NCBI GenBank assembly: GCA_051859245.1
Contig: JBHYGA010000001.1
Span: forward strand, 1,181,722-1,245,721
Length of the DNA: 64,000 nucleotides
Origin: Gemmatimonadaceae bacterium
GTDB taxonomy: Bacteria; Gemmatimonadota; Gemmatimonadetes; Gemmatimonadales; Gemmatimonadaceae
Direction: 5' to 3'
Part shown: in pieces, positions 3,692-32,273 of the stretch
How the letters are laid out: each line of letters begins with the position of its first letter
Numbering within the stretch: position 1 is the first letter of the stretch
The notes under the pieces: generated by a model
Seen by the model: only the letters and a program-made list of their open reading frames with translations
What the model was told of the DNA's origin: nothing
Databases searched by the model: none
Translations under genes and position numbers: made by a program

Positions 3692-3731
3692 CGCCACGGC
3701 CCAACGGATCAGGCTGAACCACGCCGCCTGG

Positions 3732-4667: not shown

Positions 4668-4744
4668 GTCCGAAGGTTAGCCAGCGCGGACAGCCTTGTC
4701 ACTCGTGTGGATGCACCGACTACATGAGACCAGGGCGCCGCGCA

Positions 4745-7076: not shown

Positions 7077-7096
7077 TGCGCGCTGCGGGTGCGTCA

Positions 7097-11479: not shown

Positions 11480-12274
11480 TTATGGCGTCGAGTCCACCAC
11501 GTTTGCGCGTGCCTGGGGCAGCGCCGGAACACGCAAGCGCTGTCCGGCACGCACATCGTCGTCGCGCAACCCGTTGAGTTGCCGCAAGACGTCAATCGAG
11601 CTGTTGTACTGCCGCGCAATCGACGTGAGTGTTTGTCCTCTTTCGATCACGTGTGTGGTGTAGCGCTCCGGTTGCACGGGCGCGATACCTGAACGTTGCA
11701 CACGAGCCGCGTCGTCGCTCACACGACGACGTTCGCGTGTTGCCACCTGCGCGATGGCGCTGGTCGCGGCGATGGCGCCGTCGTCTACGCGCAGCGTGAC
11801 CGCGCGATCCGGTGTGCGCAGCAGTACGCGCTTCGTGTCGCTCGTTGAGTCCACAGACATGACGAATGCCGATTCGTAGGGCCAGGACTCCAGATACAGG
11901 GCGAGCGGTCCACCATCGACGGGTCGCAGGAGCGTGACCGGTGGCGCGCCCACGTAGAGCAGTCGGCGATCGGTTGCCACCAGCAGGCCATGCGAGAGGC
12001 GCCAGAGGTCGGACGGTCGACGCTGCGAGGCAAAGGTTCGGGCCAGCACGCGCTCACCGGACAGGAGCAGTGCGCTCAGCTCGCGCTCGGCTGTTTCCCG
12101 GGCAATGCGTCGCGTGCCGATGGGCGAAACCACGCTGGCCGCGGCGGTTAGGCCGATGACGAGCGCCACCATCGAGGCGCGAGAGAGCGCCAGGACGAGC
12201 CGGCGCATGGGCCGGTTGGGCCGGGTTCGACTGAACGGATCGACGGGCAGGGGTTCCCGCGCGGGAGCGGTCAT
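11480..12274 (-). CDS. membrane-anchored protein with PH-like domain and C-terminal LysM domain
   Basis: N-terminal TM; HVIERGQTLTSIARQYNSSIDVLRQLNGL..VRAGQRLRVP. Confidence 0.85.
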   Translation of the reverse strand: MTAPAREPLPVDPFSRTRPNRPMRRLVLALSRASMVALVIGLTAAASVVSPIGTRRIARETAERELSALLLSGERVLARTFASQRRPSDLWRLSHGLLVATDRRLLYVGAPPVTLLRPVDGGPLALYLESWPYESAFVMSVDSTSDTKRVLLRTPDRAVTLRVDDGAIAATSAIAQVATRERRRVSDDAARVQRSGIAPVQPERYTTHVIERGQTLTSIARQYNSSIDVLRQLNGLRDDDVRAGQRLRVPALPQARANVVDSTP

Positions 12275-12318
12275 AGCGGCAAGCTAGGCGGTCTGGCCGG
12301 TCTGAAGAAAGGAAAAGC

Positions 12319-12351
12319 TTGACATTTCCGCGTTGCCAATACGTATTAGCA
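12319..12351 (+). promoter_or_regulatory. TTGACA -35 element plus palindromic LacI-type operator TGC-C-AATACGTATT-A-GCA
   Basis: TTGACA at 12319-12324; near-perfect 18-bp palindrome with central CG at 12334-12351, over the expected -10 region. Confidence 0.7.
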
Positions 12352-12383
12352 CCACGCAGCGGCGCATTTTCTTCATCCCTCCC

Positions 12384-13448
12384 ATGCCTCCCGCACACAA
12401 ACCGCCTTCAGCCCGAGTGACCATTCGCGACGTTGCCGTGCGCGCTGGGGTGTCCCAGCCGACGGCGTCGCTGGTGCTGGGCAAGCATCCGCGGGCTCGA
12501 GTAGCGCCGGCCACCCGCGAGCGCGTCATCGCCGCCGCCCATGCCCTCGGCTACCGACCGAACGTGGTCGCACGGTCGCTGGTGCACGGGCGCTCGTTTG
12601 CGCTGGGCGTGGTGGTGCCCGATCTGCGAAATCCCTTCGTGATGGATGTGGTGGCGGGTGCAGAGCGTGTCGCGTCGTCGGCGGGTTACGCGGTCCTTTT
12701 GTGCGACCAGTCAGCGCGACCGGCGGCGGCGCACCTTGAAACGCTCCTGGCACGCCAGATCGACGGCGTGCTGCTGGACGCTGCAGGTGCCGCCGCTCTC
12801 CCTGATGATGCGCTGCGCGGTGTGAACGTGGTGCTGATCGATGAGCCGGCGGATCGTTGGCCTGGTGTGGCGACCGACGCGCGCGCGGCAGGCCGACTCG
12901 CGGCGGAGCACCTGCTCGATCTTGGCCATCGAACGTTTGCGTTCATCGGGCCCGCCGCCGATGTGCACGCCTATCGCATGCGCGAGCGGGGCTTTGCGGA
13001 AACGGTGCGCGCCGCGGGTGTGGCCATGCCAAGCGAGCGGTGGCGGCGTGAACCCGCCACCGTGGCGGGAGGGCAGCACGCCATGCGCGCGCTGCTGGCG
13101 TTGCGGCCACGTCCGACCGCGGTGTTCTGCGCCAATGACCTGATCGCCATTGGGGCTGTCAAGCAGTGCCTTACGCAGGGTGTGTCGCTGCCTGACCAGC
13201 TGTCAGTGGTTGGCTGCGACGACATTGAAATGGCGCGGCTGATTACGCCCGAGCTCACCACGATTGCGATCCCGGCGCGAGAACTCGGCGCACGCGCTGC
13301 ACGACTCTTGTTGTCGTACATCGAACATCGTGACGATCCACCCGATCCCGCGACCGTCGCCGCGCGTCGCGCTCTGTCGCGCGCATTGCCGGTGCGCCTG
13401 GTGTCGCGTGCCTCAAGCGCTGTGGCGCCTGCAGGAGCCGTGTCGTGA
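12384..13448 (+). CDS. LacI family transcriptional regulator
   Basis: TIRDVAVRAGVSQPTAS HTH, LGYRPNVVARSL, PTAVFCANDLIAIG. Confidence 0.95.
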   Translation: MPPAHKPPSARVTIRDVAVRAGVSQPTASLVLGKHPRARVAPATRERVIAAAHALGYRPNVVARSLVHGRSFALGVVVPDLRNPFVMDVVAGAERVASSAGYAVLLCDQSARPAAAHLETLLARQIDGVLLDAAGAAALPDDALRGVNVVLIDEPADRWPGVATDARAAGRLAAEHLLDLGHRTFAFIGPAADVHAYRMRERGFAETVRAAGVAMPSERWRREPATVAGGQHAMRALLALRPRPTAVFCANDLIAIGAVKQCLTQGVSLPDQLSVVGCDDIEMARLITPELTTIAIPARELGARAARLLLSYIEHRDDPPDPATVAARRALSRALPVRLVSRASSAVAPAGAVS

Positions 13449-14473
13449 GCGATCGGCCGTCTGCCATCATCACGGGAACCGGCCACGCGCTGCCGTCACG
13501 ACGCGTGACCAATGCAGAGCTGAGCGCGCAACTCGGCGAAGACATTGCACCGTTCGTGTCGGGAACGCTCGGCATTGATGAGCGCTGGTGGTGTGCCGAT
13601 GGGGAAAGCACCGCTGATCTCGCGGAACAGGCCGGACGTGCCGCGATGCGCGCGGCTGGCGTGGAGCCGAACTCGATCGATCTGCTCATCGTTGCGACGG
13701 ACACGCCAGAGTATGTGTCGCCGGCCACGAGCTCTGAAGTGCAGGGACGGCTCGGATGTACACGCGCTGGCACGTTTGATCTCAACGCCGGATGCGCGGG
13801 CTTTGTGACGGCGCTCGATGTGGCGTGGAAGTATCTGCGTGCTGATGACCGATACCAGCGCGTGCTCGTGATCGGCGCGTACACCATGTCGAAGTGGCTT
13901 GACCCGCGCGACAAAAAAACGATCACGATTTTTGCTGATGGAGCGGGCGCCGTGGTGCTGGAGCGCGGCTCGCGTGATGGAATATTGACGAGCGAGTTGT
14001 ACGCCGACGGCTCGTTGTCGCGCGATATGGGCGTGTTCGCCGGCGGTTCGCACGAGCCGATTACTGCGCGCGTGCTGGAAGACGGCACGCGCAATCGTTT
14101 GCGTTTTGTGCGCAAGTATCCGGCCTCCGTGAATGAAGAAGGGTGGCCTCGCATTGTGCGGTCGGTGCTCGCGCGCGCTGGTGCGGAGCCGCGCGATGTG
14201 CAGCTGTGGTTCTGGACGCAGGTCAATCGCTCCACGATTGTGGAGGTGATGCGGCGGCTCGAGGTGCCGATGGAACGCGCGCACACCATCATGCACAAGT
14301 GGGGTTACACCGGATCCGCGTGTTTGCCAATGGCGCTTGATGACGCCGTGCAGGCCGGGCGGTTGCACGACGGCGACCTCATTGTCTTTACCGGGTCGGG
14401 CGCCGGGCTGGCGATGGGTTCGCTGGCCATGCGCTGGCGTACGTCGCGCGAGAAGGCGGGATCCGCACCATGA
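13445..14473 (+). CDS. 3-oxoacyl-ACP synthase III (FabH)-fold protein, non-canonical active site
   Basis: FDLNAGCAGF (Cys), IFADGAGAVV, GSGAG; TQVN in place of HQAN and GYT in place of GNT. Confidence 0.88.
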   Translation: MSDRPSAIITGTGHALPSRRVTNAELSAQLGEDIAPFVSGTLGIDERWWCADGESTADLAEQAGRAAMRAAGVEPNSIDLLIVATDTPEYVSPATSSEVQGRLGCTRAGTFDLNAGCAGFVTALDVAWKYLRADDRYQRVLVIGAYTMSKWLDPRDKKTITIFADGAGAVVLERGSRDGILTSELYADGSLSRDMGVFAGGSHEPITARVLEDGTRNRLRFVRKYPASVNEEGWPRIVRSVLARAGAEPRDVQLWFWTQVNRSTIVEVMRRLEVPMERAHTIMHKWGYTGSACLPMALDDAVQAGRLHDGDLIVFTGSGAGLAMGSLAMRWRTSREKAGSAP

Positions 14474-16125
14474 CGCAGTCGCTCGTGCATGTGCTGCTGG
14501 AGCGGGCGGCCGCCACACCAGACGGTGTGGCGTACCGCGTGCTGTCTCGTGGCGCCACCGCGCTGGGTGAAACGATGACGTGGCGCGAGTGGGCGCGCAG
14601 TGCAGAACGTGTGGCGCGCGCATTGATCGCACGCGGTGTGGCGGTGGGTGATCGCATTCTCATCTTCTCCGACAATCGCGCGCTGTGGCCCATTGTGGAT
14701 CTTGGTGCGCTGATGGCCGGTGCGGTGAGCGTTGGTGCGTATCCCACCAGTGCCGCGGCGCAGGTGGCATCGCAACTGCGCGATTCTGGCGCACAGGTTG
14801 TATTTGTTGACTCCGCCGCTCGGCGAAACATCGTGCGCAGCGTGCGCGATCAGCGCGCGTTCAATCCCGCCGTAGTGGTGGATGCACCGCACGCTGCAGA
14901 CGCGCGTGAGCCGTACGAATCGGACTGGACGAGTTTTCTGCGTGAGGGCGACGTTCACCGGGACGCCCTGGATGAGCATCGCCGCGCGCGATTGCAGGCG
15001 CTCACGCTCGATCAGGATGCCATGCTCATCTACACCTCGGGTTCTACGGGCGAACCCAGAGGCGCGCGCATTTCGCATCGGTACCTGCTGGCGTCGGCGC
15101 AGAGCATTGCGCACACGTTGGGACTACAGCCGAGTGACTCTGGCGTGTCATTTTTGCCGTTCTGTCACGCCGCTGAGCGCGTCTTCGGCATGTGCGTGCG
15201 CTTGCACGTGGGCATGAGTGCGGTGCTGGTCGAGGCACCGGAGGATGTGTTTACGGCGACGCGTCTCTTTGAGCCGACCGTGTTTGGCGGATTGCCAAGA
15301 CTCTTTGAAAAGTTGGCGCGTGCGGCCCAGCAAGCGCACACCGGGGCTGACGCTGCGCGCGCGATCCACGCGTTGCTGGGCACGCGTTGCCGGATTGCTA
15401 CTTCAGGTGGCGCTGCGCTCGACGCATCCGTCGCGGAAGCATTACACGCGGCGGGCCTCACGGTGCTCGGCGCGTACGGGCAAACGGAGCACCTGTGTAT
15501 TGCGATGAACAGACCTGACGCGGCGCGCTTTGATACCGTTGGTCCGGTGATGCCGGGAACAACGGTGCGCATCGCCGACGACGGCGAGCTATTGGTGCAG
15601 CGTAGTGCGCTCACCTTCTCCGGATACTTTGAAAAGCCGGCGGAAAGCGAGGCGGCATTTACGGCCGACGGTGAGTGGTTACACACTGGCGATCTCGCGG
15701 AACAGGACGCCGATGGCTCGTTGCGCATTGTGGGGCGTCGCAAGGAGTTGATCGCGCTCTCCACGGGAAAAAAGGTGGCGCCGCTACCGATTGAAGCGGC
15801 GTTGAGTGCGTCACCATTGATTGCCTCGGCCATGTGTTATGGCGAAGGACGTCGTTTTCTCTCGGCCGTGCTGCAGTTGCAGCCGGAGGCCGTGCGGGCG
15901 CTGCCGTCGATACGCTCGGCGGTGCAAGCCCACGTCGACACGGTCAACCATGCACTCTCGCGAACCGAACAAGTGCGCGCTTTCGTGATTGCCACCGCGC
16001 CATGGACGGTGGAAACGGGCGAACTCACACCAACACTCAAGCTCAAGCGACCTGTGATCACTGCGCAGTTTCAAGACGCACTGGATGCCCTGTATGCCGA
16101 ATCGTCAGGCGCGGTGATGACATGA
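14470..16125 (+). CDS. long-chain-fatty-acid--CoA ligase-type AMP-binding enzyme
   Basis: YTSGSTGEPRG, AYGQTE, WLHTGD, ELTPTLKLKR. Confidence 0.92.
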   Translation: MTQSLVHVLLERAAATPDGVAYRVLSRGATALGETMTWREWARSAERVARALIARGVAVGDRILIFSDNRALWPIVDLGALMAGAVSVGAYPTSAAAQVASQLRDSGAQVVFVDSAARRNIVRSVRDQRAFNPAVVVDAPHAADAREPYESDWTSFLREGDVHRDALDEHRRARLQALTLDQDAMLIYTSGSTGEPRGARISHRYLLASAQSIAHTLGLQPSDSGVSFLPFCHAAERVFGMCVRLHVGMSAVLVEAPEDVFTATRLFEPTVFGGLPRLFEKLARAAQQAHTGADAARAIHALLGTRCRIATSGGAALDASVAEALHAAGLTVLGAYGQTEHLCIAMNRPDAARFDTVGPVMPGTTVRIADDGELLVQRSALTFSGYFEKPAESEAAFTADGEWLHTGDLAEQDADGSLRIVGRRKELIALSTGKKVAPLPIEAALSASPLIASAMCYGEGRRFLSAVLQLQPEAVRALPSIRSAVQAHVDTVNHALSRTEQVRAFVIATAPWTVETGELTPTLKLKRPVITAQFQDALDALYAESSGAVMT

Positions 16126-16607
16126 GTTCGTCCAACTCGGTGCGCGCGTGGGCGCTGCGAGCGCTCGTGATTGGTGTGGTGTGTATTGCACTTGCCTACG
16201 CCAGCGCATTTCTGCCGCAGCCCTATTCGCTGGCGGGACCGTGGCTGATGGCCGTGATGATGCCGGTCGCGATGTTCGCCATGATGACGCTCGGCGCGGT
16301 GCGCGACGTACGCGGGCTTGGCCCGCTTGCAGTGCCGTTCGTGCTTGTGCTTGGTTTGGTAGCCGGCGGATTTGTTGTAGCGCTCGCACTGCCACCGGAA
16401 ACGGTTGATACGCCGCTGCTGCTGGGGCTGCCGAGACGCGCCGCGGTGATTCTGTTTGGTGTGGGACTGTTGCCGTTGTTTGTGTTGCCGATTGTGTACG
16501 CACTCACGTTCGATCGGCTCACGCTTGATGATGACGACATTGCGCGGGTCCGTGCCGCGCGCCTGCCCGAAACAACATCGATTGGCGCACGCGAGGGCAC
16601 GCACTGA
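16122..16607 (+). CDS. small 4-TM membrane protein, probable symporter accessory subunit
   Basis: ATGA overlap upstream, TGATG overlap with the symporter; four hydrophobic segments. Confidence 0.7.
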   Translation: MSSSNSVRAWALRALVIGVVCIALAYASAFLPQPYSLAGPWLMAVMMPVAMFAMMTLGAVRDVRGLGPLAVPFVLVLGLVAGGFVVALALPPETVDTPLLLGLPRRAAVILFGVGLLPLFVLPIVYALTFDRLTLDDDDIARVRAARLPETTSIGAREGTH

Positions 16608-18127
16608 TGCGGGTTCCTGACATGCTTGCACTGCTGCAAACGAGTGCATTGCCAACGCTCAAGCAACCGGTGATCGCAGCGGTTGCGGTGGCGTATTTCG
16701 TAGTGGTAGCCGTGATCGGTACCTGGGCGTCGCGCCGCACGCGATCGGCGGCTGATTTTTTTGTCGCCGGCAAGGGCATTGGCCTGTTCACGCTGGCGAT
16801 CGCATCGATGGCGGCCACGCTCTCTGGATTTGCGTTCATTGGCGGACCCGGACTTGTGTACACCGTTGGTCTTGGCGCGGTGTTCATTGTGCTGCCCGCC
16901 GCGCTCACCAACTCCATGGGCGCGTGGGTCATGGCCAAGCGGTTGCGTCTGCTCGCCGAGGTGCGCGAGATGATGACGATACCCGACGCTATTGGCGCGC
17001 GGTATCAATCGCGCGCGGCGCAGGGGCTGTCCGCGGTTGCGATCATCATTGCGGTGATCGGTTACATGGCCACCAACATTCTGGCGCTTGGGTTGGTGAT
17101 TGACGCGATCTTTGCGCCTGGTCTCGCCGCATCCATCTGGATTGGCACGATCATTGTCCTCGCGTATTCGGTGTCGGGAGGAATTCTTGCCGGCATCTAC
17201 AACGATGTGTTTCAGGGCACGCTGATGGCGGTGGCCTCGGGCGTGGTGTTCTGGTACGCACTTGAAGCGGGCGGCGGGTTTGCCGGCATGTCGCGTACGA
17301 TTCTCGCCACCGACGCCGGGTTACTGTCGCCGTGGGGCAAGCTTACGCCGCTCGCGGCGTTGTCTTTTTACTTCGTGTTTGGCCTCGGCTCGCTGGGGCA
17401 GCCGCACGTAGTTCACAAGTTCTTCATGCTGCGTGATGCGCGCCGTCTCAAGTGGTTTCCACTCTTGATGACCGGCGCGTTGTTCGTGTCGCTGCTGCTC
17501 TTTATTGGCGTTGGGCTGGCGATGAAGGCGCTCGTACTGAGCGGCGCCACACCGGCGCTGCGCATTGCGGATGACGCTACGCCTGTCTTTCTGCTCAACT
17601 TCACTCCGGTGCCGGTGGCGGCGATCGTGTTCGCGAGTGTCGCGGCGGCCATCATGAGCACGGTGAACTCGTTCATGAGTATCGGTGCCGCGGCGTTCAC
17701 GCATGATCTGCCGGTTGCGTTTGGTACGCGACTGAGCAACGAACTCAAGTGGGGCCGCATCTGGACGGTGGTAATCGCGCTGGTCGCGGCCGTCGTGGCA
17801 CAGGCGTCGGGCACGCTCGTGGCCTTTCTCGGGATTTTCGGATGGGGGCTGTTTGCCTCCACGCTTGTACCCGCGCTGGCGGTGGGACTGAACTGGGCAG
17901 GCGCCACGCGTGCTGGTGCCGTGAGCTCAATCGCGACGGGACTTGTCGTTACGCTGGCCCTCGAGACGCTCGCGTTTCAGAAGGTGTTCACGTTCCCGTC
18001 GGGTGTGACGGCGTCGGCGATCGCGCTGGTGTCATCGTTGCTCGTGTTCTTTGTGGTGTCGTGGCTTACGCGCAGTACGGCTGCGGCCACCCTTTCGTCA
18101 GACGTGCGCGCCGTCATGGAGGCATGA
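16607..18127 (+). CDS. sodium:solute symporter (SSS; PanF/PutP-like)
   Basis: DFFVAGK, SGFAFIGGPG, TIPDAIGARY, GQPHVVHKF, AAIMSTVNS; many TMs. Confidence 0.93.
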   Translation: MRVPDMLALLQTSALPTLKQPVIAAVAVAYFVVVAVIGTWASRRTRSAADFFVAGKGIGLFTLAIASMAATLSGFAFIGGPGLVYTVGLGAVFIVLPAALTNSMGAWVMAKRLRLLAEVREMMTIPDAIGARYQSRAAQGLSAVAIIIAVIGYMATNILALGLVIDAIFAPGLAASIWIGTIIVLAYSVSGGILAGIYNDVFQGTLMAVASGVVFWYALEAGGGFAGMSRTILATDAGLLSPWGKLTPLAALSFYFVFGLGSLGQPHVVHKFFMLRDARRLKWFPLLMTGALFVSLLLFIGVGLAMKALVLSGATPALRIADDATPVFLLNFTPVPVAAIVFASVAAAIMSTVNSFMSIGAAAFTHDLPVAFGTRLSNELKWGRIWTVVIALVAAVVAQASGTLVAFLGIFGWGLFASTLVPALAVGLNWAGATRAGAVSSIATGLVVTLALETLAFQKVFTFPSGVTASAIALVSSLLVFFVVSWLTRSTAAATLSSDVRAVMEA

Positions 18128-18128
18128 C

Positions 18129-18566
18129 ATGGAGTTTGAAGCAATCACCGTCGGAGTCACATCCGAATGGAGCAAGACGGTCTCAGACGCGGATGTGATG
18201 CAGTACGCGAGCATCACGGGAGACTTCAATCCGGTGCATGTAGACGAAGCAGCGGCGGCTGCAAGTCGTTTTGGTGGACGCATCGCGCACGGCATGCTCA
18301 CCGCGGGGTTCATTTCGGCGGCCATTGCCAATGGCGTTCCCGGTCCCGGTGCGATCTACCTGTCGCAAACGCTCGCGTTTCGTCAACCGGTGCGCATCGG
18401 TGACACGATCACCGTGCGCATCGAGGTCGTAGAGATCATGGCACGTACGCGACGCGTGCGATTGACCACGGTGTGTCGCAACCAGAATGGCACCGTTGTG
18501 CTCGACGGTGAAGCAGTGGTGTTGGTCCCTCCTCCATTTTCTCCTCCCACCTCCGGAGACGTCTGA
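18129..18566 (+). CDS. MaoC/PhaJ-type (R)-specific enoyl-CoA hydratase
   Basis: TGDFNPVHVD hydratase motif, IAHGML, PGPGAIYLSQ. Confidence 0.92.
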   Translation: MEFEAITVGVTSEWSKTVSDADVMQYASITGDFNPVHVDEAAAAASRFGGRIAHGMLTAGFISAAIANGVPGPGAIYLSQTLAFRQPVRIGDTITVRIEVVEIMARTRRVRLTTVCRNQNGTVVLDGEAVVLVPPPFSPPTSGDV

Positions 18567-21121
18567 TGTCGCCCGCAATGTCGTTGATCACTCGCGCGAA
18601 CACTCGCGTCTGGCGCGCTGTGTGCACTCGTGCGCTCGTGTTGTGTACTGCGGTGATGCTCACCCCCGCGCTCGCCCAGGCACAAAGCGGAACGCTGGCT
18701 GGCGTGGTTGCCGACAGCGCCGGCAGGCCGCTGGCCGGCACGCAGGTGGGTCTGATGGGCACGCGATTCGCCGTCACGGCTGGAACCGATGGTCGATATC
18801 GCATCACCGGCATTCCGGCGGGCACGTACGAGGTGCGAGCGCAGCGTATTGGCTCCGCGGTGCGCACGTTTCCGGGCACGGTAATTCGCGCCGGCGAGGA
18901 AACACGCCTTGACGTGCAGCTTTCGTCGAGTGCGTTGCAGATCGGCAGCTACGTGGTGTCTGCATCGCGTCGCGTGGAGAAGATTACCGACGCGCCGGCC
19001 ACCGTGTCGCGCATTACGGCGGACATGATTCGCAATACGGTTGGCAACTCGTTCACGGCCGCCCTGAAAGATGTGAAGGGCGTAGACTTTTTTCAGACCG
19101 GTATCGCGTCGGCGGGCATCAACGCGCGTGGCTTCAACAGCGCGTTCAACAATCGCATGTTACAGATGGAGGACAATCGCATCGCCGTGCTTCCGGAGAA
19201 CGGGTTGCCGGTTGGCGTGTTCACCACCATCCCGAAAGTAGACATCGCGGGAGTGGAAGTATTGATCGGCCCAGGTGCGGCGCTGTATGGCCCTGATGCC
19301 TCGAACGGTGTGGTCACACTGTTGAGCAAAGACCCGAAGGAATATCAAGGCACCATTCTTGAGTTCAGCGTGGGCGGAAACTCAATCAGCCGTTTTGGTG
19401 AACAGACCCCGGGCACCGTCTCCTTCAAAAACGTGCAGGGTCGGCACGCGGGCGTCCTGCTGAACGGGCGACTGGGATACAAAGTCACCGGCGAGTTGAT
19501 TGACGCCTACGATTGGCAGAATGTGAATCGGTATGCCGCGGTGGCGCCGAGCACCACGCCGTCGCCGGAGATTGGTATTGACTGGAATACGGACTACCTG
19601 CGGGGCGGTGGCGCGCTGGTGTGGTACTTCAACAATGGAGCGCGGCTCGAGTATCAGGGTGGTGCGAGCAAGTCGAACGGCGTTGGCATTACGAGCGCGG
19701 GCCGTAATCAGCTCAAGGATTGGGGCTACTGGAATCAGCAGGTGCGTTTTACCAGTGACCGCTTTTTTGCGCAGGCATACGCCACGCGTTCGTTGTCGGG
19801 ACAGACGTATGCGATCAACGGCTTCTCCACCAACCGTTTGGCGGCGCGCTTTAACGGCATCAGCGACGATTCCGTGAAACAGGCGTCCGCGTTTCCTGCA
19901 GACGGTCGTTTGATGGCCGCCGAGGCACAGCACAACTTTACCGTGCCGTCGTTGCTCAACACGCGTGTGGTGTGGGGTGTGCAGGCGCGTCGTGATCAGG
20001 TGTCATCCAAGCGCGTCTGGCTTGAAGACGCGATTACGGGCGAAGATCTCGAGCTGCAGCAGATCGGTGCATACGCCCAGACAGAAACGCCGATCAATGA
20101 GCACACGAAGCTTGTGCTTGGTGCGCGCTATGACAAACCCGAGTTCTACGACAATCAGTTTTCACCCAAAGCGGCGCTGTTGATTTCGCCGAGTGAGAAC
20201 AACACGTTCCGCATCACGTACAATCGCGCGTTCAAGTCGCCCTCGATTCTGCAGACCAGCTTCTACTTCCGCGACTTCGCACCGCTGGTTGGAGTGTTTG
20301 GCAATCGTGATGGTATTCAGGTCAAGAACGCGGCGGGCACGGTGCTTCGCACGCTTGATCCCGTGGAACCGGAGTCGAACAATACGATTGAGCTTGGCTA
20401 CAAGGGTGTGATCGGCGACAAACTGTTTCTTGAGGTGGCCGGCTGGGTGGCGCGCTACGAGAGTTTCCTGAGTCCGCTGGTGGTGGTGGCCAACCCGTTC
20501 GCTGGTGCTTCCGCGTCGTTCGCGTTTAACGCACGCACAAACACCAAGTACACAAACGCCGCTGGCGTTGATCAGATCGCGCTCACGTATTTCAATCTCG
20601 GCAAGGCCACGCTGTCTGGTATCGATGCCGGCTGGCGTTACCTGATCACGCCGTCGCTGACGACCAGCGGTACGATGTCCTTCATGCAGCTGGACTCGAT
20701 TATCCGCGCGCCGGGTGATCCGGCGGAAGCCACGTCGCTGAACAGCCCGAGTGCCAAGTTTACGGTGGGTATGGAGAGCACCGCGCTTCCGTTTGGCTCC
20801 TTCGGTGGCTTTACAATGCGATTCGTGAAGGACTATCAGTTCCTGTCTGGTGCGCACAACGGTCGCATTCCCGGGTTGCTTGGCCTGGATTTCAACGTGG
20901 GTTATCGTCTGCCGTCGCAGCGCGCGCAGATCAACCTGTCGGTGCAGAACGCGTTCGTATGCACGAGCGGTACGAGCACCGCGCCGGCCTTCCTGAACGC
21001 GGCGGTGCCATCAGGGTACCGTCGTGGCTGGGGCTGCGGTATCGGTCGTGAGCACATCGAACTGTTGAACATGCCCGCCATTGGTTCCATGGCATTCCTT
21101 GGTGTTCGCTTCGATCTTTGA
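18566..21121 (+). CDS. TonB-dependent receptor with carboxypeptidase-regulatory-like N-terminal domain
   Basis: Signal peptide, DGRYRITGIPAGTY, VVSASR plug, EVLIGPGAALYG, C-terminal GVRFDL. Confidence 0.93.
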   Translation: MSPAMSLITRANTRVWRAVCTRALVLCTAVMLTPALAQAQSGTLAGVVADSAGRPLAGTQVGLMGTRFAVTAGTDGRYRITGIPAGTYEVRAQRIGSAVRTFPGTVIRAGEETRLDVQLSSSALQIGSYVVSASRRVEKITDAPATVSRITADMIRNTVGNSFTAALKDVKGVDFFQTGIASAGINARGFNSAFNNRMLQMEDNRIAVLPENGLPVGVFTTIPKVDIAGVEVLIGPGAALYGPDASNGVVTLLSKDPKEYQGTILEFSVGGNSISRFGEQTPGTVSFKNVQGRHAGVLLNGRLGYKVTGELIDAYDWQNVNRYAAVAPSTTPSPEIGIDWNTDYLRGGGALVWYFNNGARLEYQGGASKSNGVGITSAGRNQLKDWGYWNQQVRFTSDRFFAQAYATRSLSGQTYAINGFSTNRLAARFNGISDDSVKQASAFPADGRLMAAEAQHNFTVPSLLNTRVVWGVQARRDQVSSKRVWLEDAITGEDLELQQIGAYAQTETPINEHTKLVLGARYDKPEFYDNQFSPKAALLISPSENNTFRITYNRAFKSPSILQTSFYFRDFAPLVGVFGNRDGIQVKNAAGTVLRTLDPVEPESNNTIELGYKGVIGDKLFLEVAGWVARYESFLSPLVVVANPFAGASASFAFNARTNTKYTNAAGVDQIALTYFNLGKATLSGIDAGWRYLITPSLTTSGTMSFMQLDSIIRAPGDPAEATSLNSPSAKFTVGMESTALPFGSFGGFTMRFVKDYQFLSGAHNGRIPGLLGLDFNVGYRLPSQRAQINLSVQNAFVCTSGTSTAPAFLNAAVPSGYRRGWGCGIGREHIELLNMPAIGSMAFLGVRFDL

Positions 21122-21125
21122 TGGC

Positions 21126-22157
21126 ATGCAAACCGTGCTGCACATGGTGTGGGCTCTTGCCGTTGCTGGAATACCACCGGCAACGGCAGCCGCGCAGTCC
21201 CTGGGCGAACCAATGATGCGGGCGGTCGCCGTGATGGATACACTGCCGGGCAAAACCGAAACGGGTCGGCACACCTTCGGTGACGTGAGTCGGAACTGGC
21301 GGTTGTACGAACCGTCAAACAAAAGCGCCGATGCGGCTCCAGGCATGTTGGTACTGCTGCACGGATGTACGCAGGATGCAGCCGATCTCATGCGTGGAAC
21401 ACGCGCGGAGGCGTTCGCGGAGCGTGCGGGGATGATCGTGCTGGCGCCTGAACAGGAGGCGTCAGCGCACCCCCAGAAGTGTTGGAACTGGTATGATCCG
21501 CGTCACCAGAACCGTGACGCGGGTGAGCTCGCGTGGATGTCGTCGGTGATTTCGATGATCGTGAAGCGCTACGGCGTAGACGCATCGCGCGTGCACGTGG
21601 CTGGTATCTCGGCGGGAGGTGCCATGGCTCAGCTCTTTGCCACCGCGTATCCGGAGCAGGTGGCATCGCTCACGGTGGCCAGCGGTGTGGCTGTTGGCGC
21701 TGCGGCCACGGTGCCCGATGCGTTGCAGGCCATGCGAAATGGTCCACGCGAGGGCACGACCACGTCGTCTGTGGTGTTGACGCGTATGGGGCAACGAAAA
21801 CGCGCGATTCCGCTGTTGGTCATGCACGGTGCGAGCGACGCAGTGGTCAGTCCACGAAACGCCGATGCACTTATGAAGCAGTGGAGCGATGTTCTCGATG
21901 CGTTGGCAATCGCGCGTCCCCGCGAGCGATTGCAAGGTGATAGTGGTACCGGGAAAACCGCGCAGATGCGCGCTGAAGTTGACGCGGCTGGTCGTGCCTG
22001 GCTTGTGGACTGGCGCGTGCGCGGTGTGGGACATGCGTGGTCGGGCGGTGCCAAAGAAGGGACCTACACTGATCCGGAAGGAGCGGATGCAACGGCCATG
22101 TTGTTTGCGTTCATTGCTGAGCAGGATTCGTTCGTTGCCAAGAGTCGAGCGCCGTGA
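21126..22157 (+). CDS. secreted PHB depolymerase family (LpqC-like) esterase
   Basis: Signal peptide, LHGCTQ, CWNWY, GISAGG lipase box, HGASDAVV, GHAWSGG. Confidence 0.9.
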   Translation: MQTVLHMVWALAVAGIPPATAAAQSLGEPMMRAVAVMDTLPGKTETGRHTFGDVSRNWRLYEPSNKSADAAPGMLVLLHGCTQDAADLMRGTRAEAFAERAGMIVLAPEQEASAHPQKCWNWYDPRHQNRDAGELAWMSSVISMIVKRYGVDASRVHVAGISAGGAMAQLFATAYPEQVASLTVASGVAVGAAATVPDALQAMRNGPREGTTTSSVVLTRMGQRKRAIPLLVMHGASDAVVSPRNADALMKQWSDVLDALAIARPRERLQGDSGTGKTAQMRAEVDAAGRAWLVDWRVRGVGHAWSGGAKEGTYTDPEGADATAMLFAFIAEQDSFVAKSRAP

Positions 22158-23689
22158 GCCTTGTCTTTGATCCGCTCGCCTGGTGGGCGTCGCACGACCC
22201 GGCTCGGATCGCGATCACCGATCCATCTCGCGGCGCGAGCTACAGTTATGGTGCGCTCGATCAGCAGGCCACGCAGTGGAGCGCCGCGTTGGCGCAGCTC
22301 GGCGTTGTGGCGGGCGATCGCGTCGCAATCCTCGCCCAGAATCGCCTGGATTTTGTGCCCGCGCTCACGGGTGCGAATCGACTCGGCGCGTCTCTCGTGC
22401 CGCTCAACTGGCGACTCAGCGCCGGCGAGCTTGCGCGTGTGTTGTGCGACGCGTCGCCCAGGGTGCTACTTGGCGAAGATCGATTTCGCGCGCTTGCAGA
22501 AGAGGCGGTGCGTCTCGCCGATGGCGTGAATCCCGCGTGGTGCGATCTTGATTTCGACGCACCCGCGTTGCTGCAGCGAGCGTCGCCCATCGGGCAACGC
22601 TCGCGTGTTGATGGAAATAGCGCAGCATTGATGCTCTACACGTCGGGAAGCACCGGGACGCCCAAGGGCGTGGTGATGGCGCACAGGCAACTGCACTGGA
22701 ACGCGGTGGCCACGAATGTGGCGTGGGAGCTTGGGCCGAATGATGTGGGGCCGCTCGCGTCGCCGCTCTTTCACACGGGTGGCTGGGGTGTGTTCACATT
22801 GCCGCTGCTGTTCTGTGGAGGACGCATGGTGATGTTTGATAGCTTCGAACCCGATCAGCTGTTGCACACCATGCGCGAGCAATCGATAACCGTGGCGTTT
22901 GGTGTGCCAACGCAGCTGGACATGTTGCGCGAACGACCGGCGTGGGGCGAACCGCTGCCTTCCTTGCGGTGGTTTATTGCCGGTGGCGCGCCGTGTCCGC
23001 AGCGCGTTCGAGATGCCGTGTGGGATGCCGGATACAACTTCCGGGAAGGCTATGGCCTCACGGAGTGTGGGCCCAACTGCTTCACCACCACCAACGCAAT
23101 TGCGCGAGCGAATCCAGGGACGGTCGGTCATCCGCTGCCGTTCCTTGAGATGCGACTCACGAACGATGATGGTGCCATCGTTTCGGCCAACGAAGTCGGA
23201 GAGCTGCAGCTGCGAGGGCCGCAGCTGTTCGATGGCTACTTCAACGCACCGGCGCTCACGGCTGAAGTCATGACTGCCGATGGCTGGTTGCGCACAGGTG
23301 ATCTGGCCCTGCGTCGCGACGATGGCGTGTGGGCCATTCGCGGACGTCGCAAAGAGATGTACATCTCCGGTGGCGAAAATGTATTTCCGGGCGAGGTAGA
23401 AGCGGCATTGCTTGGCTGCACTGGTGTGGCCGAGGCTGCAGTGATTGGCGTCGCGGATGAACGCTGGGGTGAAGTGGGCTGCGCGCTGGTGGTGCGTGCC
23501 ATTGGGCACGACCATCTCGATGATGCGGCGATCATCGCTGCGGCGCGCGAACGACTCGCGGGATACAAGGTTCCGAAACGTGTGGTCTTCGCCGATCATG
23601 TGCCCAAGCTTGGATCCGGCAAGATTGATCGTTCGGCGGTGCGCGCGTTGATCGCGGCGCGGAACAGCGCCACCGCGGCACACGCATGA
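22154..23689 (+). CDS. acyl-CoA synthetase (MenE/FadD-like AMP-binding)
   Basis: YTSGSTGTPKG, GYGLTE, WLRTGD, ISGGENVFPGEVE, GSGKI. Confidence 0.93.
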   Translation: MSLVFDPLAWWASHDPARIAITDPSRGASYSYGALDQQATQWSAALAQLGVVAGDRVAILAQNRLDFVPALTGANRLGASLVPLNWRLSAGELARVLCDASPRVLLGEDRFRALAEEAVRLADGVNPAWCDLDFDAPALLQRASPIGQRSRVDGNSAALMLYTSGSTGTPKGVVMAHRQLHWNAVATNVAWELGPNDVGPLASPLFHTGGWGVFTLPLLFCGGRMVMFDSFEPDQLLHTMREQSITVAFGVPTQLDMLRERPAWGEPLPSLRWFIAGGAPCPQRVRDAVWDAGYNFREGYGLTECGPNCFTTTNAIARANPGTVGHPLPFLEMRLTNDDGAIVSANEVGELQLRGPQLFDGYFNAPALTAEVMTADGWLRTGDLALRRDDGVWAIRGRRKEMYISGGENVFPGEVEAALLGCTGVAEAAVIGVADERWGEVGCALVVRAIGHDHLDDAAIIAAARERLAGYKVPKRVVFADHVPKLGSGKIDRSAVRALIAARNSATAAHA

Positions 23690-24291
23690 AATCGGAAACG
23701 GTGGACGCCGCCGTTGCGAGCACCAAAGGCGCGACCGTTCGTGGCACGCTCGCGTTCTTGCACAAACTTGTGGGTGCGGGCGGTGTGCAGGCGGTGCTTG
23801 ATGCCTTGCCGGCCGCGCTCGCCACAGAGTTGGCCACGGTGCAACCGACCGACGATGTGCCATACGCGCGATTGGTGGCGTTGTGGCAGGCCGCCGACGC
23901 TCAACTGCGCGAACGACACCCGCATTGGGCCGAACTGGGCGGGCGTTTTAACATCGAGTCGCTCGGTTTGCAGTTGTATGGCGGCATTCTTCGCAAACCC
24001 ACGCCAAAGGATTTCCTCACCCAGAGCGTCTCGTTGTTCCGGCTGTTCTACGCGCCGGGAGACATGCAGGTGGTGCAGGAAGACCCGGGAAGCGCCGTGC
24101 TGCGACTGGTTGGGTTTGATCCGGTGCACGCCGTGTTCTGCCGTCGGCAGGTTGGCGGATTGGCGTGCGCACTGGAGCTCGCAGGCGGCGTGTCGCCGGT
24201 GGTGCGTCATGTGCGGTGCACCTTGCAGGGCGATGTGTTCTGCGAATGGGAGATGCGCTGGTCGGAGCGCGAGCCACGCGGCTCCACGTAG
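23686..24291 (+). CDS. H-NOX/V4R-like small-ligand-binding protein (DUF2378-like)
   Basis: N-terminal VRGT, C-terminal CTLQGDVFCEWEMRW V4R-like motif. Confidence 0.6.
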   Translation: MKSETVDAAVASTKGATVRGTLAFLHKLVGAGGVQAVLDALPAALATELATVQPTDDVPYARLVALWQAADAQLRERHPHWAELGGRFNIESLGLQLYGGILRKPTPKDFLTQSVSLFRLFYAPGDMQVVQEDPGSAVLRLVGFDPVHAVFCRRQVGGLACALELAGGVSPVVRHVRCTLQGDVFCEWEMRWSEREPRGST

Positions 24292-24340
24292 TCGGTTCGC
24301 CTCTGGTGCTCAGCTGGTGATTTGACGAGCGTTAGGAGAC

Positions 24341-24628
24341 ATGCCAACCACGCCCCGTCACTCACCCAAATCGCGAGCCGATCGTTCGCCTGCGCCGCGC
24401 CCTGCGGCCACGCAGATGGATCTGTTTCCCGAACGACCGGTGGTCGAAGTGCTCGATCCCAGAACGGTCGTTGGACCGCGCACGGCGACGTCGGCGGTGA
24501 TCCGTGTACGATTGCGTTCCGTCGAAGCGCCGCATCTCGTGTTTCACGATCGACACGGATGGTATTGCGACACGCATGGTGCGACGTGCGAAGCCGTAGC
24601 GGTGGCGCGCGCCGAGCCGGCGCTGTGA
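24341..24628 (+). CDS. small hypothetical protein with His/Cys cluster
   Basis: AGGAG RBS, GTGA overlap with next gene; HDRHGWYCDTHGATC. Confidence 0.65.
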   Translation: MPTTPRHSPKSRADRSPAPRPAATQMDLFPERPVVEVLDPRTVVGPRTATSAVIRVRLRSVEAPHLVFHDRHGWYCDTHGATCEAVAVARAEPAL

Positions 24629-26631
24629 ACGCGCCGTTGTGGCAGCCGGATGCGAAACAACGCGACGCCACGCAGTGGGCTGACTTCACCCGCTGGCTCG
24701 CGCATCGTGGTCTGATCGCGGACGCCAGTATGGGCAGTCATGCACTGTGGACGTGGAGTGTTTCGCAGCCCGAGCAGTTTTGGGAATCGCTCTGGCAGTA
24801 CTGCGATATTCTCGCGGATCACAATGCGTCGGGGCGACAGCACGACGCGGTGCTGGTTGGCGGACATCGAATGGCTCCGCCAGACGCCGCGCTTGGACCG
24901 CACTGGTTTCCGGGAGCGCGACTGAACTTCGCGGAACATATGTTGCGCCGGCGTGATGAGCACACGGCCATCGTCAGTTGGACGGAGCAAGGCCAACGGT
25001 GCACACTGTCGTACCGTCAGCTCGCGGAGCAGGTGGCGCGCTGCGCGTCGGCACTTCGCGCCGTGGGGGTGGTAGCCGGTGATCGTGTGGCTGGCTGGCT
25101 GCCCAATGTACCCGAGGCGGTGATTGCGATGCTCGCGGCCGCATCAATCGGTGCGATCTGGTCGTCGTGTTCGCCCGACTTTGGTGTGGACGGTGTGCTT
25201 GACCGTTTTGGCCAGATTGAGCCGACGGTGCTTGTCGTATCCGATTGCTATCAGTACGCGGGAAAAACCATTGATGTGCTCGCGCGCGTGGCGCAGGTCA
25301 ACAGGCAACTGCCGTCGTTACGCGCCACATGGGTGGTGAAAGGCGCCGACGTTCCGGCAGATATTGCGGCGGTTGACAACGCGGCGCATTGGCATGACGT
25401 GCTCGCGGTGCACACGAACGCCGACCTCACGTTCACGCGTCTGCCGTTCGATCACCCGCTGTACATACTCTATTCTTCGGGCACAACCGGCCTGCCCAAG
25501 TGCATTGTGCACGGGGCCGGTGGCACCTTGCTGCAACATCTGAAAGAGCATGTGTTGCATACGGACCTGCGCGCGACCGACACCATGTTCTACTTCACCA
25601 CCTGTGGATGGATGATGTGGAATTGGTTGGTCTCGTCGCTTGCCGTGGGCGCCACCATTGTGCTGTATGACGGTGCGCCATTGCCGGCGAATGATCCGTC
25701 CGTTCTGTGGCGCATGGCCGCGCAGGAGGGCGTGTCTGTGTTCGGCACGAGCGCCAAGTATCTCTCCGCGCTCGAGAAGGCAGGCGTTCGTCCGCGCGAG
25801 CGCGAGGATCTGTCACGTTTGCGTTGTGTGCTGTCCACCGGCAGTCCACTGGCGGAACCGTCGTACGATTTTGTCTACCGCGACATTTCGCCGCACGTTC
25901 AGTTGGCCAGCATTAGTGGCGGAACGGACATTGTCTCCTGTTTTGCGCTCGGCGATCCAACGGGCCCCGTGCATCGCGGCGAACTCCAGATCCGCGGACT
26001 TGGCATGGCGGTTGATATCTGGTCGGAGCGCGGCGAACCCGTTCGCGGAGAGGCCGGCGAACTCGTTTGCACGGCGCCGTTTCCGAGCATGCCCGTGGCG
26101 TTCTGGAATGACGCGAACGGCGCGAAGTATCGGGCCGCGTATTTCGAGCACTTCCCAGGTGTCTGGCGTCACGGCGACTGGGCCGAAATCACACGCAACG
26201 ATGGTTTGATCATTCACGGTCGCAGCGATGCGACGTTGAATCCTGGTGGTGTCCGCATTGGCACGGCCGAGATCTATCGTCAGGTGGAGAGCCTGCCGGA
26301 GATACTGGAGAGTGTTGTCACCGAGCACACCGTGACGGACCGCTCCGGTACAGAGGCGAGGGTGGCACTTTTTGTTCGACTCTCGCCTGGCGTGGCGCTC
26401 GACGCCGAGCTGGCCGCAAGGATTCGTGGGTGCATTCGGGCGGGCGCCAGTCCGCACCATGTGCCGCGCGTGATTGGAGCCGTACCGGATATTCCGCGTA
26501 CCCGAAGCGGAAAAATCAGTGAACTGGCCGTGCGTGAGGTCATTCACGGTCGTCCGGTCAAGAACGCCGACGCACTCGCGAATCCCGAATCGCTGGCGGC
26601 GTTTGCGGGCCATCCGGCGCTCGCTGAGTAA
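24625..26631 (+). CDS. acetoacetate--CoA ligase (acetoacetyl-CoA synthetase)
   Basis: WFPGARLNFAE, SSCSPDFG, YSSGTTGLPKCIVH, TTCGWMMWNW, GRSDATLNPGGVRIG. Confidence 0.95.
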   Translation: MNAPLWQPDAKQRDATQWADFTRWLAHRGLIADASMGSHALWTWSVSQPEQFWESLWQYCDILADHNASGRQHDAVLVGGHRMAPPDAALGPHWFPGARLNFAEHMLRRRDEHTAIVSWTEQGQRCTLSYRQLAEQVARCASALRAVGVVAGDRVAGWLPNVPEAVIAMLAAASIGAIWSSCSPDFGVDGVLDRFGQIEPTVLVVSDCYQYAGKTIDVLARVAQVNRQLPSLRATWVVKGADVPADIAAVDNAAHWHDVLAVHTNADLTFTRLPFDHPLYILYSSGTTGLPKCIVHGAGGTLLQHLKEHVLHTDLRATDTMFYFTTCGWMMWNWLVSSLAVGATIVLYDGAPLPANDPSVLWRMAAQEGVSVFGTSAKYLSALEKAGVRPREREDLSRLRCVLSTGSPLAEPSYDFVYRDISPHVQLASISGGTDIVSCFALGDPTGPVHRGELQIRGLGMAVDIWSERGEPVRGEAGELVCTAPFPSMPVAFWNDANGAKYRAAYFEHFPGVWRHGDWAEITRNDGLIIHGRSDATLNPGGVRIGTAEIYRQVESLPEILESVVTEHTVTDRSGTEARVALFVRLSPGVALDAELAARIRGCIRAGASPHHVPRVIGAVPDIPRTRSGKISELAVREVIHGRPVKNADALANPESLAAFAGHPALAE

Positions 26632-27860
<1,229 letters not shown>

Positions 27861-27861
<1 letters not shown>

Positions 27862-29054: not shown

Positions 29055-29071
29055 AACGCTGTCGCCACGCC

Positions 29072-31866: not shown

Positions 31867-32273
31867 CGGCACGTCGACAGTTCTTTTACGCAGAGACAAG
31901 CGGCATACGCATCACGGTGCGTCCGTCTTTTCTGTCTGAACAATCCAGTCCGGTGCTCGGGCAGTATGTCTTTGCGTACCACATTCGCATTGAGAATGTG
32001 GGCACCGCGGCGGCGCAACTGCGCACGCGTCACTGGCGCATTCACGATCCGGTGGGCGGCGACAGCGTTGTTGAAGGCGAAGGCGTGGTGGGCGAGCAGC
32101 CGCATTTGCTGCCCGGTGAGGTGCATGAGTACCGCAGTTTTTGCGTGCTCAAAGCACCGCACGGATGGATGGAAGGCAACTACCGGTTTGTGCGTGAAGA
32201 TGGTGAAGCGTTTCGCGCACAGATTCCACGTTTCGATCTAGACGCCGAGCCGCGCCCCGACACCGTGAGCTGA
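31863..32273 (+). CDS. apaG: ApaG
   Basis: YVFAYHIRIEN, QLRTRHWRI, VEGEGVVGEQP. Confidence 0.95.
   Translation: MTARRQFFYAETSGIRITVRPSFLSEQSSPVLGQYVFAYHIRIENVGTAAAQLRTRHWRIHDPVGGDSVVEGEGVVGEQPHLLPGEVHEYRSFCVLKAPHGWMEGNYRFVREDGEAFRAQIPRFDLDAEPRPDTVS

Follow-up and report, generated by a model that had tools for sequence, protein, structure and literature searches.

The subject of this study is a run of genes in a 64,000-nucleotide stretch of a Gemmatimonadaceae genome (assembly GCA_051859245.1, contig JBHYGA010000001.1, positions 1,181,722 to 1,245,721), called the window below and used for all coordinates unless a locus or contig is named. An earlier reading of the bare sequence, the original prediction, had described this run as a "polyester utilization locus" for scavenging polyhydroxybutyrate (PHB) or other polyhydroxyalkanoates (PHAs) and had likened it to a polysaccharide utilization locus (PUL). 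Twelve + strand genes span positions 12384-26631, and nearly all of them are joined by overlapping stop and start codons. The listing of open reading frames (ORFs), protein family scans and our reading of the junctions bear out both this layout and the families that the original prediction had assigned. We refer to the genes as A to L:

12335-12350, no strand assigned: candidate LacI operator, a 16-bp palindrome made up of GCCAATAC and GTATTAGC (read from the sequence)
12384-13448, + strand: A, LacI-family repressor and first gene of the operon, with an N-terminal helix-turn-helix (HTH; Pfam LacI, PF00356, 3.1e-13) and a type I periplasmic-binding-protein fold (Peripla_BP_3, PF13377, 9.4e-37)
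13445-14473, + strand: B, KAS III (FabH)-fold protein (Pfam ACP_syn_III, ACP_syn_III_C)
14470-16125, + strand: C, ANL ligase 1, long-chain/FadD11-like type with AMP-binding_C_3 (Pfam)
16122-16607, + strand: D, membrane protein of 161 aa (translation)
16607-18127, + strand: E, sodium:solute symporter (SSS; Pfam SSF 7.8e-47)
18129-18566, + strand: F, MaoC/PhaJ-like (R)-specific enoyl-CoA hydratase (Pfam MaoC_dehydratas 1.8e-28)
18566-21121, + strand: G, TonB-dependent receptor with signal peptide, N-terminal CarboxypepD_reg domain, plug and barrel (Pfam)
21126-22157, + strand: H, exported single-domain Esterase_PHB esterase (NF050058, 8DAJ)
22154-23689, + strand: I, ANL ligase 2, medium-chain/aryl type (Pfam)
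23686-24291, + strand: J, stand-alone H-NOX/V4R-fold protein of 201 aa (structure model)
24341-24628, + strand: K, His/Cys protein of 95 aa (translation, 14-sequence alignment)
24625-26631, + strand: L, acetoacetate-CoA ligase (NF002937, TIGR01217)

Six junctions (A/B, B/C, C/D, H/I, I/J and K/L) are 4-nt overlaps, D/E and F/G overlap by 1 nt, and gaps of 1 nt, 4 nt and 49 nt separate E/F, G/H and J/K, respectively. The small membrane gene D occupies the frame beginning at 16122, F starts at 18129 and not at the ORF start 18051, and H starts at 21126, as the ORF extended to 21081 runs into the end of the receptor gene. This upstream extension of H appears conserved in alignments because it is the receptor's C-terminus in another frame. 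A scan for promoters and terminators from 12000 to 31990 was uninformative, with a single promoter-like site on the minus strand and 19 terminator-like sites against 18.5 expected from shuffled sequence.

The genes A to J travel together through the phylum. Esterase H is present in 9 of 41 close genomes (window genome included), all 9 belonging to the window's genus, and the order from A to L is kept in the 8 other same-genus loci as far as their contigs extend. Across a sample of 301 Gemmatimonadota genomes, 17 including the window genome encode a strong orthologue of receptor G (E <= 1e-200), and we compared the 20 kb around each of the other 16. Eleven of these, from 7 genera and 3 families, carry the full locus outside the window's genus, with B, G, H, J and a ligase-2 type gene in all 11; C is found in 10 of them, D-E in 7 and F as well as K-L in 5 each, and LacI gene A is present in 10, the contig ending first in the eleventh. 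Three reduced loci (L065, L066 and L074) retain receptor, LacI and J only, and two further ones have the receptor alone or together with a ligase, an Abhydrolase_1 hydrolase and a major facilitator superfamily (MFS) transporter. B occurs in 12 of the 301 genomes, which are precisely the 12 with a full locus. Among five same-genus genomes without an esterase match, four also lack B and G, and the fifth, which is 85% complete, has B and G on small contigs. Because these genes co-occur and go missing together, we conclude that they are inherited and lost as one accessory unit: The A-J block is not a chance arrangement, and it is present or absent as a unit. The joint conservation of TonB receptor, Esterase_PHB and FabH-like protein that the original prediction had proposed is therefore real; for the MaoC protein it holds only in part, since F is PhaJ-like as anticipated but found in just 5 of the 11 out-of-genus loci. 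Symporter and MaoC are optional parts of the locus.

Some loci contain reduced or second modules in which the receptor is accompanied by an ANL ligase, an Abhydrolase_1 hydrolase, LacI and J or an MFS transporter (L066:3339-13676, L065, L064:7981-12926 and L070:6628-13104). The ANL ligase of these modules is 30% identical to ligase 2, the hydrolase has no obvious signal peptide, and in L066 a GH78 alpha-L-rhamnosidase (3339-6197) lies directly upstream of the receptor.

Esterase H is most likely a depolymerase-type enzyme that is exported from the cytoplasm and has putative PHB activity, and here the family assignment of the original prediction stands firm. The protein scores 250 bits against the NCBIfam model for the catalytic domain of type-1 short-chain-length PHA depolymerases (NF050058, cut-off 150), and all 19 of 19 orthologues match this model at E <= 1e-10, while the corresponding medium-chain model gives H only 23 bits against a cut-off of 270. 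The closest solved relative over residues 70-346 is 8DAJ at E 1.1e-57, compared to 4e-16 for an acetylxylan esterase and 5e-15 for a feruloyl esterase (8IY8) as next-best structures. 8DAJ is LtPHBase, a single-domain enzyme of Lihuaxuella thermophila that degrades PHB, PHA copolymers, polylactic acid and polycaprolactone (PMC9601781). H carries all four consensus motifs given there, in the form of HGCTQ, VDASRVHVAGISAGG, GASDAVV and GVGHAWSGG, of which the Asp and His motifs fit loosely. Neither the motifs nor the catalytic residues vary, with H79, C81, S162, D238 and H303 invariant in 19 esterase sequences, and a Sec-type signal peptide, judged by eye, begins after Met16 of the long ORF and ends at AAA/QS. 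One additional orthologue (L015:325-1350, genome G008) contains a single in-frame TGA, either as a pseudogene or through an assembly error, with the rest of its locus intact; we excluded it from the esterase alignment.

The intracellular proteins and the rest of the genome fit a pathway at the level of coenzyme A (CoA) thioesters. F consists of a single MaoC hot-dog domain that is closest to PhaJ1 (5CPG, E 3.4e-35) and PhaJ (1IQ6, E 1.8e-25). PhaJ uses a catalytic Asp/His pair, and Asp32 and His37 of F align with this pair of 1IQ6 in a gap-free alignment; pocket residues Ser63, Ile66 and Val131 align with Ser, Leu and Val, so that the bulky pocket is kept. Mutagenesis of 1IQ6 reportedly showed that bulky residues at the last two of these positions restrict substrates to C4-C6. 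Ligase 1 (C) finds its best NCBIfam match in FadD11, at 275 bits far under the cut-off of 950, and its best matches in the PDB, the A domain of carboxylic-acid reductase and FadD5, are distant. Ligase 2 (I) is nearest to 8WEU and 8WEV, near-identical chains titled fatty-acyl-CoA synthase and feruloyl-CoA synthetase (E 6e-91). Symporter E lies below the cut-offs of its nearest NCBIfam models, PutP and PanF. D has no family match in Pfam or NCBIfam; its presence coincides with that of E throughout the 11 out-of-genus loci, and it is probably an accessory subunit of the symporter.

The window genome is 99.87% complete. Family scans across it returned neither PhaC_N nor a class III PHA synthase, and the best match to 3-hydroxybutyrate dehydrogenase reaches 200 bits against a cut-off of 307, so that none passes; four thiolases and four 3-hydroxyacyl-CoA dehydrogenases are encoded outside the locus. 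The original prediction had noted that neither a 3-hydroxybutyrate dehydrogenase nor a thiolase lies in the locus and had concluded that an unusual CoA-level route is used. The observation stands, and such a route for exogenous polymer is plausible because these scans yielded no PHA synthase and left all matches to 3-hydroxybutyrate dehydrogenase below the cut-off. Judged by family membership, the route from 3-hydroxyacid over (R)-3-hydroxyacyl-CoA and enoyl-CoA into general beta-oxidation is encoded in the genome.

B is an unusual member of the block. It remains below both FabH cut-offs (242.5 versus 249 bits and 207 versus 292 bits) and has lost the FabH triad: Relative to Aquifex FabH (2EBD), Cys117 is kept, Thr258 replaces the His, and Tyr288 replaces the Asn. 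Three canonical Cys-His-Asn FabH paralogues are encoded elsewhere in the genome. The His and Asn of FabH drive malonyl decarboxylation; because both are lost and the acyl-accepting Cys alone is kept, B cannot be a condensing enzyme, and it should, as far as its sequence tells, be an acyl-transferring or thiolytic enzyme acting on a CoA thioester. All 18 Gemmatimonadota B sequences compared have the Cys-Thr-Tyr combination, and so do all 10 additional loci, of which 8 belong to other phyla.

A survey of one genome per species uncovered 16 B loci, half of which (L087-L094) lie outside Gemmatimonadota, with 41-57% identity and Cys/Thr/Tyr throughout. They come from two Acidobacteriota, Vicinamibacterales, Thermoanaerobaculia, Calditrichaceae, a Bacteroidetes metagenome-assembled genome, Roseivirgaceae and Rhodocyclaceae, so that the variant is present in at least five other phyla, at loci with TonB receptor, hydrolase and ligase. 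In varying sets, its neighbors there comprise a regulator of the TetR family, a TonB receptor resembling Oar (CarboxypepD_reg plus OMP_b-brl_4), a FabG/PhaB-like short-chain dehydrogenase/reductase (SDR), a hydrolase of the Abhydrolase_1 type that bears a signal peptide or membrane anchor, an ANL ligase similar to ligase 2, an SSS symporter and an SCP-x-type thiolase. B is thus part of a cross-phylum module of receptor, exported hydrolase and ligase. An (R)-3-hydroxyacyl thioester would be handled by PhaJ in Gemmatimonadota and by an (R)-type SDR elsewhere, and this swap would lend support to a hydroxyacid ester as substrate, with the reservation that the hydrolase family differs between the phyla.

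Regulation seems to involve both the first and the last gene of the A-J block. The palindrome, which has a central CG, is located 34 nt upstream of the LacI start codon, with a TTGACA hexamer 10 nt further upstream. At no more than 1 mismatch to its symmetrized form it is unique in the 4.7-Mb genome, and a copy with up to 3 mismatches precedes LacI in 14 of 18 related loci; of the remaining four, one is cut by a contig edge and three are rearranged. A sigma-70 promoter over the operator was considered and dropped, as only the TTGACA hexamer is clear. The reduced loci, too, keep A and J next to the receptor.

J itself has no Pfam match at E <= 0.01, matches HNOB only at E 0.096 and does not reach the gathering scores of V4R or HNOB; its relatives match Pfam V4R at 1e-5 to 1e-8, and a language-model search led to DUF2378/TIGR02265 and V4R clusters. 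An AlphaFold model built from a 65-sequence alignment (pLDDT 94.7) resembles H-NOX proteins over its whole length (Z 16.6 over 177 residues; Foldseek TM 0.63-0.76), followed by the ligand-binding domain of VirS (8RCX, Z 11.7), the V4R protein MJ1460 (Z 9.8), phenol-bound DmpR (6IY8, Z 9.2) and PoxR (5FRU, Z 9.0). Residues C152, H175, C178 and C186 are invariant in a 23-sequence alignment, and their spacing (C-22-H-2-C-7-C) equals that of the zinc site of PoxR, DmpR and Shewanella H-NOX. H175, inside this cluster, is the sole invariant histidine. H-NOX heme sensors have a conserved proximal histidine, and heme in J seems unlikely because no other histidine is conserved. By its modeled fold, J is a non-enzymatic sensor of the H-NOX/V4R type and not a pathway enzyme, so that the V4R-like label of the original prediction survives, with the role shifted to that of a regulator's partner.

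This partner would be LacI. A natural fusion protein of 556 aa, P0134, consists of LacI HTH and periplasmic-binding-protein domains followed by a J domain, and we read it as a fusion of A and J orthologues because its N-terminal part is 54% identical to A over 338 aa and the remainder 38% identical to J over 187. Together with synteny, it suggests that J contacts LacI as its ligand-sensing partner. A full HMMER scan recovered 317 relatives of J at E <= 0.001, including J-like domains within chemoreceptors and histidine kinases; examples are chemoreceptor P0242 and the GAF/histidine-kinase proteins P0167, P0186 and P0251.

Taken together, we give about even weight to the reading that A-J (12384-24291) is one LacI-controlled catabolic operon of Gemmatimonadota that takes up and degrades an ester-linked substrate from outside the cell; this would most likely be poly- or oligo-(R)-3-hydroxyalkanoate of short chain length (PHB/PHA) released by other organisms. 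Pieced together from family membership, with gene content and conservation as the observed basis, the pathway would run as follows. The Sec-exported single-domain esterase H would cut polymer or oligomers outside the cytoplasm, TonB-dependent receptor G would import the fragments across the outer membrane, and the D/E symporter, where present, would bring hydroxyacids into the cell. Ligase 2 and perhaps ligase 1 would form (R)-3-hydroxyacyl-CoA, which PhaJ-like F would dehydrate to enoyl-CoA, and beta-oxidation genes elsewhere in the genome could complete the breakdown with no need for 3-hydroxybutyrate dehydrogenase. LacI would bind the conserved palindrome at 12335-12350, and J would sense the ligand on its behalf. 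PHB/PHA scavenging as originally predicted is thus backed by esterase, PhaJ and genome context, and short-chain PHA or its oligomers as the actual substrate is a call that we see as evenly balanced.

Several observations weigh against this reading. The NF050058 model has no higher status than "hypothetical equivalog", feruloyl and acetylxylan esterases share the Pfam family of H, and no protein of the locus evolves faster than H, whose median identity outside the genus is 42% compared to 74% for B. H also has neither a linker nor a C-terminal substrate-binding domain, ending 14 residues past the catalytic domain; such a domain is evidently not essential for activity because the proven enzyme 8DAJ is also without one. 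Uptake of 3-hydroxybutyrate monomers or dimers should be possible without a TonB receptor, symporter and PhaJ are absent from 4 and 6 of the 11 out-of-genus loci, respectively, and classical PHB pathways give B no role. The hydrolase beside B in other phyla is of the Abhydrolase_1 and not of the Esterase_PHB type. Finally, ligase 1 is of a long-chain type, the nearest solved relative of ligase 2 bears a feruloyl-CoA synthetase title, and the known ligands of the V4R-type sensors DmpR and PoxR are aromatics.

The last two genes of the run, which the original prediction had counted as members of the locus, turned out not to belong to its core. L is a clear acetoacetate-CoA ligase at equivalog level (932 bits versus 639 for NF002937; 877 versus 520.9 for TIGR01217), and the + strand run goes on beyond it:

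26644-31866, + strand: M-P, 4-hydroxyphenylpyruvate dioxygenase (HPPD), homogentisate dioxygenase (HGD)-like cupin, class I/II aminotransferase and GHL10 protein (TIGR01263, Pfam)

HPPD scores 456 bits against a cut-off of 277, and the HGD-like cupin, 84-87% identical across genera, matches homogentisate dioxygenase weakly (TIGR01015, 38 bits versus 511). K-L are in the locus only in two genera, the window's own (g1) and g28, to which all five out-of-genus K-L loci belong. M-P follow L directly in 12 of 13 K-L loci, the exception being L014 with convergent minus-strand ORFs, and the HPPD module is not adjacent to the locus in L014 and 6 other genera. Four other genera with the locus have their acetoacetate-CoA ligase gene elsewhere: It adjoins HPPD and/or the HGD-like gene in two of them (L075, L077), and the 1.5-kb flanks show nothing in the other two. 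In our reading K and L, rather than being core genes, are a later add-on shared with the adjoining tyrosine/homogentisate module, at whose junction L sits; M-P are not core either. A bona fide fumarylacetoacetase is encoded on another contig, at G000:C6:192499-193764 (532 bits versus a cut-off of 375), so tyrosine breakdown should yield acetoacetate in this host, and L is thus no argument for PHB use; operon and tyrosine/homogentisate module alike may draw on it. K is always located directly upstream of L, overlapping it, and is found only together with it. Its core APHL[VI]FHDRHGWYC-x-x-HG-x-x-C is conserved in the 14-sequence alignment; it has no match in Pfam or NCBIfam, and the Atlas offers Gemmatimonadota hypothetical clusters and a weak SWIM lead (0.85).

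Elsewhere in the window, region 4745-8131 encodes a two-component pair of the LytTR type, with the His_kinase at 4745-5947 on the minus strand and the response regulator inside 5541-7076, and after it an Abhydrolase_3 esterase at 7076-8131; we saw no linkage of this region to the operon in other genomes. An ORF of 1391 aa occupies 54762-58937 on the + strand.

The strongest competitor, unlikely in our view, holds that the operon deals with esters of hydroxy fatty acids, either longer (R)-3-hydroxy acids or others, for which the receptor would import an amphiphile, the esterase would split it, and the ligases would trap the acids by vectorial acylation. Candidates would be medium-chain PHA, 3-(3-hydroxyalkanoyloxy)alkanoates or rhamnolipids, lipopeptide or lipid A fragments and cutin- or suberin-type polyesters. 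This would make good use of a FadD11-like ligase 1 and of a TonB receptor, which makes more sense above the size limit of porins. The 4 of 11 out-of-genus loci without an inner-membrane transporter would suit it as well, given that uptake of the FadL/FadD kind works without one. A LacI-type repressor hints at a sugar-bearing inducer, and the GH78 rhamnosidase upstream of the L066 receptor points the same way, but it occurs in only 1 of 16 loci. Against longer chains, H fits the short-chain depolymerase model and falls far short of the medium-chain one, and the pocket residues of F, given their reported roles, equal those of the C4-C6-specific 1IQ6.

We regard as improbable, more so than longer-chain esters, that the substrates are aromatic (hydroxycinnamoyl, e.g., feruloyl) esters of plant cell walls, with H as feruloyl esterase, I as feruloyl-CoA synthetase, J as aromatic-acid sensor and HPPD/HGD in the same regulon. 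The title of ligase 2's best solved relative, the feruloyl esterases within the Esterase_PHB family (8IY8 among the matches of H), the fold that J shares with the phenol-binding domains of DmpR and PoxR and the M-P genes behind most K-L loci could all be read in this way. Yet H is, by E-values, about 40 orders of magnitude nearer to the PHB depolymerase than to feruloyl esterases, F is of the short-chain PhaJ type, and the HPPD module is adjacent in 2 genera only; family scans of the locus showed no crotonase-type enoyl-CoA hydratase/lyase and no vanillin or aromatic-ring enzymes.

Somewhat less probable again, the receptor might not import anything and instead serve, in the manner of Oar, as a channel through which the esterase is exported past the outer membrane; the products would then enter via porins and symporter. 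Oar is reportedly required for secretion of the protease PopC in Myxococcus. The CarboxypepD_reg domain of G is typical of Oar-like receptors, those beside B in other phyla are of the OMP_b-brl_4/Oar type, and H follows G in 18 of 19 loci with both genes (the exception being L064), in the window after a gap of 4 nt. Import is the better fit for the reduced loci L066, L064 and L070, where a ligase and a hydrolase without visible signal peptide come after the receptor, and the only secretion signal seen on H is its Sec peptide. We find it hardly credible, finally, that this is a biosynthetic locus of the OleABCD or beta-lactone kind, in which a thiolase-fold enzyme, alpha/beta-hydrolase and ANL ligase with or without an SDR (the composition of ole gene sets, and an arrangement with adjacent SDR, FabH-like, alpha/beta-hydrolase and ANL ligase genes in L091 and L088) make a lipid or signal, as B is devoid of the His and Asn required for Claisen condensation and only distantly OleA-like (E about 1e-13 over 100 residues), the hydrolases have signal peptides or membrane anchors, and receptor, symporter and repressor frame the locus.

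Uptake of short-chain PHA or its oligomers thus remains the reading that we favor, and it would matter beyond this genome. PHB and PHA count among the major storage polymers of microbes and are the leading biodegradable plastics, and the capture of their breakdown products by diderm soil and water bacteria has been described almost only for lone secreted depolymerases; within the full-text literature, whose coverage leaves aside most subscription journals and supplements, we came across no account of a TonB-receptor-linked PHB depolymerase locus. A conserved operon of receptor, esterase, ligase and PhaJ would allow polyester scavenging to be traced genetically in the Gemmatimonadota, a phylum both widespread and little studied. 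Homologues of B and H in public data, with 40-74% identity, appear under the names of Gemmatimonas phototrophica, Gemmatirosa kalamazoonensis and Roseisolibacter agri, and these names of cultured species make the PHB question directly testable. Whatever the substrate, a non-condensing FabH family is conserved in at least six phyla, and a LacI repressor appears to have outsourced its ligand sensing to an H-NOX/V4R protein.

A bolder idea, which we put forward as a long shot, is that B represents a new class of thiolase-fold enzymes cutting the oxo-esters of CoA-activated hydroxyacid oligomers and that it acts, along with the two-protein repressor, in an undescribed cross-phylum ester utilization module. 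If so, B would by thiolysis or transacylation do in reverse what a PHA synthase does, although with another fold, or else substitute for the missing thiolase. The energy of the polyester bonds would be retained as thioesters at the cost of one ATP per oligomer instead of one per monomer, in a module centered on a TonB receptor and controlled by LacI together with a non-heme H-NOX/V4R sensor.

Several of the components have known counterparts. With LtPHBase, H shares the HGCxQ oxyanion motif, the G-x-S-A-G-G serine box, the Asp and GxGHAWSGG His motifs, the presence of a signal peptide and the absence of a substrate-binding domain; LtPHBase, from a Gram-positive thermophile, has been studied as a secreted enzyme on its own, whereas the gene for H is translationally coupled to that of a TonB receptor in a 10-gene operon. 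B recalls DpsC, CerJ and OxaC, KAS III homologues with altered triads that work as acyltransferases in antibiotic pathways, none of them reported with Cys-Thr-Tyr in that source (PMC12308425). All of them combine a thiolase/KAS III fold and a changed triad with the loss of ketosynthase chemistry. DpsC, CerJ and OxaC, however, have Ser-His-Asp or Cys-His-Asp triads and reside in antibiotic biosynthetic clusters, while B with its Cys-Thr-Tyr is 41-57% identical across phyla and sits in catabolic-looking loci. J has the same fold as the sensor domains of DmpR, PoxR and VirS (Z 9.0-11.7), but those are parts of NtrC- or AraC-type activators, with the sensor domain at the N-terminus, whereas J is a separate polypeptide paired with a LacI repressor.

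As a whole, the locus resembles Sus-like PULs in combining an outer-membrane TonB-dependent transporter, an exported hydrolase, an inner-membrane transporter and its own regulator in one co-regulated block, and in this sense the PUL-like logic of the original prediction is sound. It is not a PUL in the strict sense because G is not of the SusC family (43 bits against TIGR04056 for SusC/RagA, cut-off 368), no SusD/RagB family member was found among the ORFs from 8620 to 33587, and no glycoside hydrolase lies in the locus; its downstream steps are CoA ligases and a hydratase rather than sugar enzymes. Among receptor-centered operons for polymers other than sugars, the nearest precedent is found in sphingomonads, whose peg operon is said to include an acyl-CoA synthetase, PegE. 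The peg operon differs from our locus in relying on ether oxidation instead of ester hydrolysis, in its type of regulator and in having no FabH-like or PhaJ gene. It serves the use of polyethylene glycol with a TonB-dependent receptor (PegB) and a permease (PegD; PMC11644497), and the two systems are thus alike in being built around a TonB receptor, in addressing a non-carbohydrate polymer and in providing a permease for its small products.

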